Assembly (NCBI GenBank): GCA_025061115.1
Contig: JANZKC010000001.1
Span: forward strand, 544,001 to 608,000
Source: Candidatus Culexmicrobium cathedralense
GTDB taxonomy: Archaea; Thermoproteota; Methanomethylicia; Culexarchaeales; Culexmicrobiaceae
Direction: 5' to 3'
Length of the DNA: 64,000 nt
The notes beneath the pieces were generated by a model. It was not told where the DNA came from. It made no database searches and saw only the letters and a program-made list of their open reading frames with translations. Shown piece after piece: positions 1,049-2,754 of this stretch (its first letter is position 1; every line of letters starts with the position of its first letter). Made by a program: the position numbers and the translations under genes.

Positions 1049-2693
1049 CTACTTGCGCCTAGCCAAGCTATATTCCAATGCAGCCTTCACAAATCCCAAG
1101 TACGGCGGCGAAGGTCTTCCCGGCCTGGACTTGAACTCTGGATGCGCCTGAGACCCTAGGAAGAAGGGGTGGTCCGGCAATTCTATGAACTCTATCCTCC
1201 TTCCATCAGGGCTCCTCCCGGAAAATACGAGTCCATGGCGCTGAAGGACATCCCAGTAGGCTGGATTAACTTCGTATCTATGCCTATGACGCTCATAAAC
1301 AATGGTCTTGCCATACAGCTTGTGCGCAAGCGTTCCAGGCTCCAAAACTATTGGGTGAGCCCCCAGCCGCATGGTCCCTCCCTTCATATCAATCTTCCTC
1401 TGCTCCGGCAGGAGATCTATAACTGGATTAGGAGTGTTAGGCGCATTCTCAGTGCTATTGGCATCCTTCAATCCAACGACATTTCTAGCAAACTCTATAA
1501 CTGCCATTTGAAAGCCAAAGCAAATACCCAGAAATGGCATTCCATTTTCCCTAGCAAACTTAACAGCTAGAATTTTCCCCTCAGTACCCCTAGGCCCAAA
1601 GCCTGGCGGAACTAGAACGCCATCATATCCGCGGAGCATTTCAAGCTCTTCAGGAGATTCCTCAAAGACCTCAGTTTCTATCCAATCTATTTTAACTCTA
1701 GTTTTAAGAGCAGCTCCAGCATGCTTTAAGGCTTCATTAATGCTGATGTACGCGTCAGCAAGCTTAGCATATTTACCGCACATTGCAATCTTCACTTCGT
1801 GCTCAAAGTTCTCAAAGGATGCCACCACGCTCTTCCACTTGCTCCAATCAGGCGAATTCAACTTCAACCTCAATCTCTTGCAAATGTAATCTCCCATGCC
1901 CTGCTGATCGAGTATCAGCGGAACCTTGTAAACGCAGTCTACAGTGTAGGACGAGAAAACCGCTTCCTGAGAAACGCTCCCGTAAAGAGCAATTTTACGC
2001 TTAGCTGAAGGCTCGAGGGGCACGCTGCACCTTGCAACTATGATGTCCGGCTGAATACCTATCCTCCTAAGCTCATTAACGCTGTGCTGGCAGGGCTTAG
2101 TCTTCTGCTCTCCAGTTACATCTAATATCGGAACTAATGCGACGTGAACGAACAGCGTGTTCTCGTAACCCTCCTCAAGCCTCATCTGCCTAATAGCCTC
2201 CAGAAAAGGCAAGCCCTCAATGTCACCTACAGTGCCTCCAACCTCAACCAGAACGATGTCAACATTGCTTCGCTTAGCTGCAAGCCTAATTCTCCTCTTA
2301 ATCTCATCAGTTATGTGAGGAACCACTTGGACGCATGCACCCAAATAGTCGCCTCTACGCTCCCTTTCAATCACGGTCAAGTAGATCTGCCCAGTCGTGA
2401 TGTTATTGTCCTTGGGCAAGTTCACGTCCAGGAATCGCTCGTAATGTCCCAGGTCCAAGTCTATCTCTCCGCCATCTTCGGTTACGAAAACTTCCCCATG
2501 CATGTATGGATTCATGGTTCCAGCATCAACGTTCAAGTACGGATCTATCTTGACGGCGGTTACGCTATAACCTCTAACCTGAAGCATCTTGCCAATTGAC
2601 GCTGCAACGACGCCTCTAGGGGGGAGCTCAAAGCAAGCTCCCTTTCCCCACGCTTGAAAGCACGCCGCCAGTTATGAAGATGTACTTGGTCAA
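1049..2693 (-). CDS. pyrG: CTP synthase, split by a 28-nt insertion (exon 1 2693-2644, exon 2 2615-1049; 538 aa when joined)
   Basis: The ORF track has [28 protein letters not shown] and QAHPEF. The missing N-terminus [17 protein letters not shown] is encoded from TTG 2693 (GAGGGGTGGTG SD upstream) in a different frame. Confidence 0.95.
2616..2643 (-). other. Candidate bulge-helix-bulge (BHB) mRNA intron in pyrG, AGGGAGCUUGCUUUGAGCUCCCCCCUAG
   Basis: GGGG/CCCU 4-bp central helix, 3-nt bulges AAA and AGA, 8-bp intron stem GGGAGCUU/GAGCUCCC with GCUUU loop; cutting after the 2nd nt of each bulge gives GGG AAA GGC GUC (G-K-G-V). Confidence 0.85.
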
Positions 2694-2754
2694 TTCACCA
2701 CCCCTCTACTAAACGAGTTATAATTTGAGATGGGAGCATAAATAAGTCACCGCC

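Follow-up and report, generated by a model that had tools for sequence, protein, structure and literature searches.

An intron of the bulge-helix-bulge (BHB) type in crenarchaeal cbf5 pre-mRNA is said to have been described by Watanabe in 2002. In eukaryotes, the HAC1/XBP1 mRNAs are cleaved at stem-loops by IRE1 and rejoined by an RtcB-type or tRNA ligase, and the XBP1 intron is 26 nt long. This unconventional cytoplasmic splicing of HAC1/XBP1 is mentioned in PMC13149111. The crenarchaeal cbf5 intron is treated in Yokobori 2009 (PMC2738675), which also states that introns had been predicted in other protein genes and cites for this a paper on a rudivirus and a book chapter on Sulfolobus. The 5′ UTR of the Haloferax volcanii HVO_1309 mRNA contains a BHB intron with both in vivo and in vitro support (Schwarz 2020, PMC7714728), and cbf5 was described in the same 2020 paper as the sole archaeal protein-coding sequence with a tRNA-type intron. 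The reference list of a 2025 paper cites cbf5 work only (PMC12397907), and a review of archaeal recoding mentions none of pyrG, hypD, cbf5 and intron (PMC8211752). In the main texts of the literature to 2025, with subscription journals covered in part, we found no report of a BHB intron in pyrG (i.e., the CTP synthase gene) or hypD.

In the window (i.e., the whole stretch of 64,000 nucleotides that was analyzed), pyrG lies on the minus strand, where exon 1 (2693-2644, 50 nt) and exon 2 (2615-1049) are separated by an insert of 28 nt (2643-2616). Exon 1 comprises a TTG start, 16 codons in all and two bases of the Lys17 codon; exon 2 supplies the third base of that codon and continues from Gly18 to the stop. 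A Shine-Dalgarno-like purine-rich motif, GAGGGGTGGTGA (2695-2706, minus strand), adjoins the exon 1 start on its upstream side, and a GGNGGTG-type motif is found a few nucleotides 5′ of the exon 1 TTG/GTG start in all 10 pyrG-bearing genomes of the order. Left unspliced, the ORF that starts at this TTG (2693-2628, minus strand) ends after 21 aa at a TGA within the insert, and the main pyrG frame picks up at 2614. Exon 2 alone matched the CTP synthase models PRK05380 of NCBIfam (770.8 bits, cut-off 308, profile positions 19-530 of 534) and TIGR00337 (763.6 bits, cut-off 462.75), with a CTP_synth_N domain (positions 16-265) and a GATase domain. Removal of the insert by the BHB rule yielded an in-frame CDS of 1617 nt encoding 538 aa plus a stop, which had zero residues extra and zero missing when compared with 10 uninterrupted orthologues. 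The joined gene is thus predicted to encode a full-length CTP synthase, to which exon 1 contributes the N-terminal segment absent from the exon 2 model matches. Lys17 and this conserved segment presumably form the nucleotide-binding loop of the enzyme. Removal restores both the frame and the conserved motif exactly. We interpret the 28 nt as a BHB intron in the pyrG pre-mRNA, with a probability of about 0.88. The sequence-only reading that had drawn attention to this locus placed 28 extra nt between the pyrG N-terminus and the rest, gave the unspliced message as a 21-aa peptide ending at a stop, and restored the Lys codon and 538 aa with the EndA rule; its coordinates and its product were confirmed.

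The proposed structure is built around a 4-bp central helix, in which the exon strand GGGG (2646-2649, codons Val15-Gly16) pairs with the intron strand CCCU (2621-2618). On either side of this helix sits a bulge of 3 nt, AAA (2643-2645; predicted 5′ cut between 2644 and 2643) and AGA (2615-2617; predicted 3′ cut between 2616 and 2615), so the intron would extend from the third base of bulge 1 to the second base of bulge 2. These elements are as the earlier reading had claimed. The intron hairpin (2622-2642; stem 2642-2636 with 2628-2622, loop 2635-2629) forms seven Watson-Crick pairs plus one U.G pair, and the looser exon-exon stem with one extra G was also found: its 3′ strand (2610-2613) pairs with 2650-2653 after an unpaired G at 2614, but this outer helix is weak, consisting of four pairs that are mostly G.U and requiring a 1-nt offset. 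In the proposed pathway, the transcript would fold with the GC-rich intron hairpin as a cap, a two-subunit (alpha/beta) EndA would cut past the second base of each bulge, and RtcB would ligate the exons to rebuild the Lys17 codon and the conserved SSVGK/GVV segment of the CTP synthase, whereas unspliced RNA could give only the short peptide. The predicted junction is ambiguous by 1 nt (an A lies on either side), and the product is unchanged by it. That the pyrG transcript is cut and rejoined in vivo, and precisely where, is inferred, as is any part that its splicing may play in regulation.

Folding energy alone was not significant for the 71-nt stretch (z of -1.22; 19 of 200 shuffles folded equally well or better). 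The minimum-free-energy fold favored a 5-bp central helix with an added U-A pair, a register that leads to an out-of-frame product; the 4-bp register alone gives the right frame, and its choice rested partly on that outcome. It is because of comparative data, not folding energy, that the motif is regarded as being beyond chance. The insert was present at the same codon in all 10 of the pyrG-bearing genomes of the order (12 genomes searched), and the two genomes with no pyrG match were 57% and 45% complete. Insert lengths in the 10 genomes were 28, 26, 24, 25, 26, 21, 21, 21, 22 and 27 nt, which give remainders of 1, 2, 0, 1, 2, 0, 0, 0, 1 and 0 after division by three and so fall into all three classes. 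The bulge-4 bp-bulge geometry was exact in each of them, and despite the differing lengths a cut after the second base of each bulge gave an in-frame CTP synthase every time.

In the alignment of the 10 sequences, all 143 of the 143 structure cells were paired. The four central helix pairs (alignment columns 15-46, 16-45, 17-44 and 18-43) formed in every genome, the closing pair being G.U in seven and G-C in three and the remaining three pairs invariant G-C; bulge 2 was AGA in six genomes and AAA in four. Four of the seven stem pairs of the intron hairpin had changed on both sides, with zero unpaired cells, so the pyrG alignment that had been proposed as a check did reveal a covarying stem. 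None of 500 shuffles matched the observed pairing or covariation score, and slid controls were 53-70% paired, although the 10 genomes are kin and shuffle statistics overstate their independence. Every cell of the outer exon-exon helix was pairable in the 10 genomes, mostly as G.U, and no pair had changed on both sides. Given that this exon-side helix is weak, G.U-rich and offset by 1 nt, the predicted pyrG motif is relaxed rather than canonical hBHBh′. The class to which the order belongs comprised 62 genomes, and the nearest named pyrG relatives carry the label Candidatus Bathyarchaeota. Single internal stops in three pyrG matches designated f6 proved to be natural stop codons.

Like the cbf5 intron, the putative pyrG intron is short, lies within a protein-coding region and is defined by a BHB. 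It differs in that pyrG encodes a central metabolic enzyme, the site is a Lys codon 17 codons from the start that leaves a 50-nt exon 1, and the intron is limited to one order but universal among the pyrG genes of that order. The two BHB cores are also mirror images of each other (GGGG.aaa...CCCU.aga in pyrG, CCCU.aga...GGGG.aaa in cbf5). With HVO_1309, pyrG shares an mRNA as the substrate, in its case predicted, of the tRNA splicing endonuclease. The HVO_1309 intron, however, is located in the untranslated leader and leaves the reading frame whole, whereas the pyrG intron splits the coding sequence, so that splicing would be obligatory for function. Archaeal pre-tRNA and pre-rRNA BHB introns share with the pyrG insert a pair of 3-nt bulges spaced by 4 bp, the enzymes predicted to act on them and a similar range of sizes, but the pyrG substrate is a translated mRNA, and its protein sequence places a further constraint on the exon half of the motif. 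The HAC1/XBP1 introns resemble the predicted pyrG intron as short frame-changing mRNA introns removed independently of the spliceosome by an endonuclease and a tRNA ligase, and differ in that the endonuclease is IRE1 rather than EndA and the splicing is a regulated stress switch. We regard the predicted pyrG intron as a genuine member of the archaeal mRNA BHB-intron class.

Both exons are under strong purifying selection in the joined frame. Across all 45 pairs, summed pS was 0.542 and pN 0.033 in exon 1, and in exon 2 pS was 0.73-0.89 (saturated) vs. pN of 0.04-0.13. The three BHB-forming exon codons, GTG GGG AAA, were invariant in 10 of 10 intron-bearing genes, while among intron-less relatives GTG occurred in 1 of 36, GGG in 7 of 36 and AAA in 13 of 36. 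Synonymous sites are thus frozen at precisely the exon bases that take part in the BHB, and only in insert-bearing genomes, as expected where protein sequence constrains those bases as well. The way in which relatives conserve the insert, with covariation and with frozen exon codons, indicates that it is functional. These results also bear on the proposal that the insert is never removed and that exon 1 is a small ORF or a relic, with translation starting at the internal Met of exon 2, nine codons past Gly18, or yielding a two-piece protein. A 512-aa ORF does begin at ATG 2587, and the equivalent of this ATG is the first canonical start of the exon 2 frame in 7 of 10 genomes. Its product, however, would be without the whole conserved N-terminal segment, a Shine-Dalgarno-like motif precedes exon 1, strong purifying selection acts on exon 1 in precisely the frame that continues into exon 2, the internal Met is replaced by Ile in one genome (G009), and the first start lies elsewhere in 3 of 10. 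Non-removal would also leave the BHB geometry and the covariation unexplained, and we consider it extremely unlikely.

All the genomes compared were metagenome-assembled, and the contamination estimate of the genome studied here (G000) is 7.65%. Metagenome assembly, together with the fact that an annotation pipeline would label pyrG frameshifted, could suggest an assembly artefact or a decaying pseudogene. The insert is nevertheless present in contigs of runs X1, X2 and X3, which come from three studies (X1 is possibly the source of the assembly), and in 10 independent genome assemblies. The run contigs cross positions 2400-2900, including the insert, with 0-1 differences, no gap and no joint; a contig of a relative in run X2 gave a match that ends exactly at 2644. 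A single CTP_synth_N match was found genome-wide, indicating one pyrG copy, and synonymous sites of this gene are saturated yet pN is low. The artefact or pseudogene explanation is therefore effectively refuted. Of the observations that had been named in advance as telling against an intron, an assembly artefact is countered by the contigs carrying the insert, and a second pyrG and relaxed selection by the single copy and the low pN. No second copy of the intron sequence was found in the genome with up to 5 mismatches allowed, and there was no sign of a repeat.

Four further predicted sites bear out the suggestion that introns of this kind occur more widely among the mRNAs of the lineage. The cbf5 gene of this genome contains a predicted 20-nt BHB intron (contig C2:254526-254545), removal of which restores GHGGTL/DPKV; its TruB_N match covers exon 2 only, a 319-aa stop-free frame. 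The hypD gene of the same genome has a predicted BHB mini-intron as well, and in a sister family two further putative BHB introns are found in pyrG at other codons (sites B and C, site A being the one in the window). Under a strict filter requiring 4/4 pairs, the EndA cut rule restored the frame in 8 of 8 genomes examined for cbf5, 13 of 13 for hypD, 9 of 10 for pyrG-B and 8 of 10 for pyrG-C. Over the five sites, the rule was right in 48 of 51 instances, and each of the three misses had one A.C mismatch in the central helix as read from the sequences. In all, three genes of one archaeal class hold five predicted BHB-intron sites, and every site is supported by covariation. The predicted introns of pyrG and hypD extend protein-coding BHB introns beyond the single gene cbf5.

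The genome encodes the enzymes that such introns would need. Above cut-off, PF01974 (EndA) matched twice and PF01139 (RtcB) once; the EndA alpha gene shares the contig of pyrG, and EndA beta and RtcB are also encoded in the genome. Both EndA paralogues (186 aa and 174 aa) carry N and C domains. When compared with the two-unit EndA model NF006795, one paralogue aligned to the second half (179-345) and the other to the first (3-162), the latter also having weak matches to "subunit beta" models. By eye, Tyr/His/Lys, which we take to be the EndA triad, were found in the 186-aa EndA only. Introns are predicted in 17 of the 47 predicted tRNA genes of the genome. EndA of the (alpha-beta)2 type is linked to relaxed motifs. 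Hetero-oligomeric EndA has been associated with cbf5 mRNA introns, with gain and loss among lineages (PMC2738675). It might be argued from the weak outer helix and the relaxed rather than canonical hBHBh′ motif that the insert is spliced by other machinery (i.e., another nuclease and ligase, or self-cleavage) and that the likeness to a BHB is partly a coincidence. We regard this as very unlikely, given the exact geometry in 10 of 10 genomes, the 48 of 51 instances framed by the EndA rule alone, the EndA and RtcB genes of this genome, and the reported splicing of BHB-type cbf5 introns in other archaea (PMC2738675; PMC7714728).

The short GC-rich hairpin within a coding region is superficially similar to the inserts of programmed translational bypassing, in which ribosomes would take off before or inside the hairpin and land just before exon 2 and the RNA would never be spliced. 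The inserts of T4 gene 60 and the mitochondrial byps are likewise short, hairpin-forming and missing from the protein. Bypassing is defined by a take-off codon adjoining a stop and a matching landing codon (PMC8211752), a combination that the pyrG sequences do not show. No stop follows the take-off codon (AAA or GGR). If the hop began at the split Lys codon, the codons of take-off and landing would match in 4 of the 10 genomes and differ in the other 6 (AAA vs. AGA). The first full codon of the insert is Gly (GGG/GGA) and the landing codon Gly18 is GGC/GGT, so that the two are synonymous in 10 of 10 genomes but identical in 0 of 10; a hop from the GGR of the insert to the GGY of Gly18 may be conceivable at the pyrG-A site only. 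At the inserts of identical architecture, matching codons were found in none of 28 cases (0 of 8 for cbf5, 0 of 10 for pyrG-B and 0 of 10 for pyrG-C), and at the latter two sites the required Tyr codon arises only on joining. Bypassing would also not account for the 4-bp helix conserved between exon and intron, for the pair of 3-nt bulges or for the frozen exon codons, and no description of it in Archaea was found in passages of the recoding review (PMC8211752). As a general rule, ribosomal bypassing fails on these codon comparisons, and for pyrG itself we judge it highly improbable. Every sequence-level prediction of a BHB intron that was open to test (i.e., conservation, covariation, selection, copy number, assemblies and enzymes) was borne out.

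The loose genome-wide BHB and ORF-rescue scan, which the sequence-only reading had recommended, gave 25,581 raw motifs, 5,704 after filtering and 352 coding passes; pyrG and hypD were in the list, but the displaced controls gave 349 passes, and because there was no excess over them the scan is uninformative. A split-HSP screen of 6,091 ORFs of genome G029, 1,686 of them with matches, returned eight candidates, and a frame-restoring BHB was found in cbf5 alone. No fitting BHB was present at C1:106.8 kb (an in-frame 171-nt extra), C1:765.5 kb, C2:243.9 kb, C2:386.2 kb, C2:414.7 kb, C4:35.2 kb or C4:187.5 kb. Several of these seven rejected candidates resemble antisense ORFs. In a short-exon scan of 1,002 tests, which covered the genes shared with G029 (750 strong HSPs) and left short 3′ exons aside, pyrG scored 67 and hypD 63, both real, against 37 for the best shuffled control. 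Scores of 59 (C1) and 50 (C4) were rejected, as an antisense ORF and as an RNA-like region with no fitting BHB, respectively. A strict mini-intron scan gave 25 matches and missed pyrG, for which the G.U limit was exceeded once the stem was extended; an apparent rescue at C2:433530-433549 sits within an intact 286-aa ORF and was rejected. The number of intron-bearing genes in this genome is at least three, as a lower bound.

For more than 20 years cbf5 has been the only known case, and pyrG would add an essential metabolic gene, with the cell's only CTP synthase relying on the tRNA-splicing machinery. Genes of this kind will pass for frameshifted or truncated in annotation pipelines, by which the metabolic completeness of uncultured archaea would be underestimated. 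With the predicted introns, it would become testable by comparison how archaeal protein genes gain and lose introns and at which sites, which bears on the origin of protein-gene introns. The frozen synonymous sites are a clear case of bases that are constrained at once by an RNA structure and by the protein they encode.

Tentatively, and with odds well below even in our estimation, the BHB mini-introns (19-33 nt) may be elements of a class that is spreading among protein-coding genes in these archaea rather than isolated relics; as part of that idea, pyrG would have gained introns independently at three codons in two lineages. If so, an active insertion mechanism would be expected, e.g., the EndA/RtcB reaction reversed, followed by reverse transcription and recombination, and splicing could be a checkpoint through which nucleotide synthesis, the maturation of hydrogenase and the modification of ribosomes are coupled to RNA-processing capacity. 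Two of the pyrG sites lie 30 nt apart, both with ACCCAUA as the exon context and with identical intron ends, as expected from copy-and-insert. The hypD intron is patchy, and one genome holds both an intron-bearing and an intron-less copy. All five sites fall in the most conserved, catalytic-motif codons.

On the minus strand of the window, a Shine-Dalgarno-like motif (GAGGGGTGGTGA, 2706-2695) lies upstream of the TTG at 2693 that opens pyrG exon 1 (50 nt, 2693-2644), and an insert of 28 nt (2643-2616) follows, both extents being taken from scripted arithmetic. Without removal of the insert, the frame from this TTG encodes 17 residues, then GSLL and TGA, i.e., a 21-aa ORF (2693-2628, minus), and the remaining CTP synthase, up to its stop at 1049 (minus), is in a different frame. 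The sequence-only reading had ascribed this break to a bulge-helix-bulge (BHB) intron, the motif cut by archaeal EndA after the second base of each bulge and rejoined by RtcB. Its arithmetic was reproduced by script: exons 1 and 2 combined comprise 1617 nt (538 codons and a stop), and the spliced junction rebuilds exactly the ...SS(V/I/L)GKG... stretch, which 10 orthologues of other archaea and of bacteria have uninterrupted. Exon 2 alone begins to match curated CTP synthase models at profile position 19 (770.8 bits against PRK05380; cut-off 308). A second intact pyrG copy was looked for, and the genome (1.98 Mb, 25 contigs) gave a single CTP_synth_N match.

The same codon is interrupted in relatives. 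A pyrG match was found in 4 of the 5 genomes of the window's family (protein 87-89% identical) and in 10 of the 12 of its order, and all of these genes (4/4 and 10/10) carry an insert at the Lys17 codon (pyrG-A); completeness of the two genomes of the order that lack a match is 57 and 45%. Class-wide (62 genomes), the pyrG-A intron is restricted to this order. Read by eye, exon 1 starts with TTG in 9 of the 10 genomes, GTG in one (G005) and ATG in none, each start being preceded by a strong Shine-Dalgarno-like motif. Given that the insert lengths (28, 26, 24, 25, 26, 21, 21, 21, 22, and 27 nt) cover all classes mod 3 and that each insert contains an in-frame stop, a fixed +1 or -1 frameshift is excluded. 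In three public DNA runs, each from a different study (X1, X2, and X3), unbroken contigs cover 2400-2900 of the window with 0-1 differences and neither gap nor joint, so the 28 nt are also present there; X1 is a possible source of the assembly, and depths in X2 and X3 are 78 and 8, respectively. None of the listed runs was of RNA. A low-depth 175-nt contig of a related organism in X2, an independent sediment metagenome, has 5 differences in 50 from exon 1 and diverges exactly at 2644, the predicted 5' splice site. Judged by eye from the reverse-complemented consensus, its loose end runs straight into ...K-GVTAASLGK and would thus represent an intron-less pyrG allele.

Substitution patterns point to a functional gene. 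For exon 1, read in the frame that exon 2 continues, pS was 0.542 vs. pN of 0.033 across all 45 pairs; for exon 2 (245 codons, the window's genome against each other genome), pS was 0.73-0.89 and pN 0.04-0.13. The low pN against saturated silent sites indicates that function has been maintained across this divergence in all of pyrG, the separated first 17 codons included. The single copy, the 10 genomes with the insert, the contigs of three studies and the low pN exclude a pseudogene or an assembly artefact. Selection also bears on the reading that nothing is removed and that translation starts at an internal initiation site in exon 2 (ATG at window 2587 and homologous positions). Such initiation would drop a conserved 10-residue segment upstream, and it leaves the selection on exon 1 unexplained.

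In terms of RNA structure, the BHB shape drawn in the sequence-only reading can form: exon strand GGGG (2649-2646) pairs with intron strand CCCU (2621-2618), flanked by two 3-nt bulges, AAA (2645-2643) and AGA (2617-2615), with a GC-rich intron hairpin at 2642-2622 (all minus). The case for the BHB is not founded on folding energy, which is statistically unremarkable for this 71-nt stretch (-27.2 kcal/mol, z = -1.22; 19 of 200 shuffles equally stable); in the minimum-energy fold, a further U-A pair extends the central helix to 5 bp, and the outer exon-exon helix is weak. On the 10-sequence alignment, all 143 cells of the BHB were paired, compared to 53-70% with the 3' partners slid. The covarying stems sought among relatives were found in the hairpin, where 4 of 7 pairs were altered on both sides (12 cells; 10 sequences). 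None of 500 column shuffles matched the observed pairing or covariation score, figures that are inflated by the kinship of the sequences, although synonymous sites among them are saturated. Most tellingly, the exon-half codons GTG GGG AAA are identical in all 10 intron-bearing genes, while all adjoining codons vary at the silent position; of 36 intron-less relatives, 1 has GTG, 7 have GGG, and 13 have AAA at the corresponding sites. RNA structure thus constrains these codons only where the insert is present.

The proposal that mRNA introns are more widespread in this lineage was borne out at further sites. A loose scan of the genome for BHB motifs and ORFs gave 352 matches vs. 349 in controls, i.e., no excess. 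When probed with the ORFs of G029, a genome of this class that is complete in one contig (1,538,194 bp), a split-HSP screen recovered cbf5, and a short-exon screen placed pyrG at the top and found hypD, which encodes a hydrogenase maturation factor; hypD and cbf5 also ranked top among the 25 genome-wide matches of a strict "mini-intron" scan. The 20-nt cbf5 insert (contig C2:254526-254545, locus L131:1371-1390, plus; CCCU.aga.GCCCU.aaa.AGGGC.GGGG.aaa) interrupts the GHGGTL|DP motif within its Asp codon, and splicing it out restores GHGGTL|DPKV. It is found at the same site in 8/8 relatives examined (19-29 nt), and most families of the class (62 genomes) have a split or stop-interrupted cbf5. 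Its BHB core is a mirror image of that of pyrG. Removal of the 26-nt hypD insert (C2:34688-34713, L270:1089-1114, minus; CGGC.aca.CAGCCGC.auuaa.GCGGCUG.GCCG.acu), which splits a Thr codon, restores MHVCG-T-HE; all 13 genomes retrieved carry a BHB-compliant intron of 20-28 nt at this site, and compensatory variants of the stem are numerous. Its distribution across the 62 genomes is patchy: hypD is split in the window's genome, G002, G005 and the sister family f9, and contiguous in G001, G006-8 and families f6 and f7, with one intron-bearing and one intron-less copy in G009.

In f9 (10/10 genomes, G052-G061; L119-L128), the Lys17 intron is absent and two other introns occur in the first ~200 nt of pyrG: pyrG-B (19-27 nt) in the Tyr codon of KIDP-Y and pyrG-C (30-33 nt) in that of MNP-Y. 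Under a strict filter, 9/10 and 8/10, respectively, were BHB-compliant; in each of the others, the central helix showed, by eye, a single A.C mismatch. The two have the same exon context (ACCCAUA) and the same intron ends (GGC.../...GCCGGGU) and are separated by 30 nt of mature mRNA; the common context and ends suggest that one may be derived from the other.

Ribosomal bypassing instead of splicing is formally possible for pyrG-A only, as a Gly-to-Gly hop. As described in a passage of PMC8211752, bypassing requires that the take-off codon adjoin a stop and that the landing codon match it. At the split codon, the two are the same in 4/10 pyrG-A, 2/13 hypD (3 more being synonymous) and 0/8 cbf5 genes, and in 0/10 for each of pyrG-B and pyrG-C, where the unspliced codon is a stop.

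Components predicted for splicing are encoded in the genome, namely one RtcB and two EndA-family proteins (186 and 174 aa), in each of which an N and a C domain are recognised. The 186-aa protein is encoded on the contig that carries pyrG; it corresponds to the second half of the two-unit EndA model and keeps a Tyr, a His and a Lys, which we take to be the catalytic residues of the family. In the 174-aa protein, the His is missing; this protein corresponds to the first half of that model and weakly matches "subunit beta" models. The pair would fit a hetero-oligomeric enzyme, a type that the literature (PMC5829648 among others) associates with relaxed motifs and with the splicing of cbf5 mRNA. 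ARAGORN predicted introns in 17 of 47 tRNA genes, some at non-canonical positions; two, with implausible predicted lengths of 637 and 1895 nt, are probably mispredictions, or may reflect split or permuted genes.

Besides tRNA and rRNA, passages of a 2020 paper mention a BHB intron in one mRNA (cbf5) and a new 5'-UTR case in Haloferax (PMC7714728). A passage from 2009 names cbf5 as the sole gene with confirmed splicing, others being merely predicted (PMC2738675), and, for mRNA, the reference list of a 2025 paper cites only cbf5 papers (PMC12397907). A full-text literature search, with many subscription journals and supplements outside its scope, found no report of a BHB intron in pyrG or hypD. 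The pyrG insert shares with the cbf5 intron the motif and the predicted enzymes but differs in gene, sites and lineage. Thus, it would be a new case of the cbf5-type mRNA intron. The original observation was correct, and every test that sequence data permit supports the BHB-intron reading; we put the probability that the pyrG insert is spliced by EndA/RtcB at a little under nine in ten.

It should be added that the five sites (pyrG-A, -B and -C, cbf5 and hypD) all fall within motif stretches that are among the most conserved of their genes (GKG, DPY, NPY, GTLDP and CGTHE). This location may reflect insertion preference, ascertainment or, since the BHB exon half has to remain constant, retention bias.
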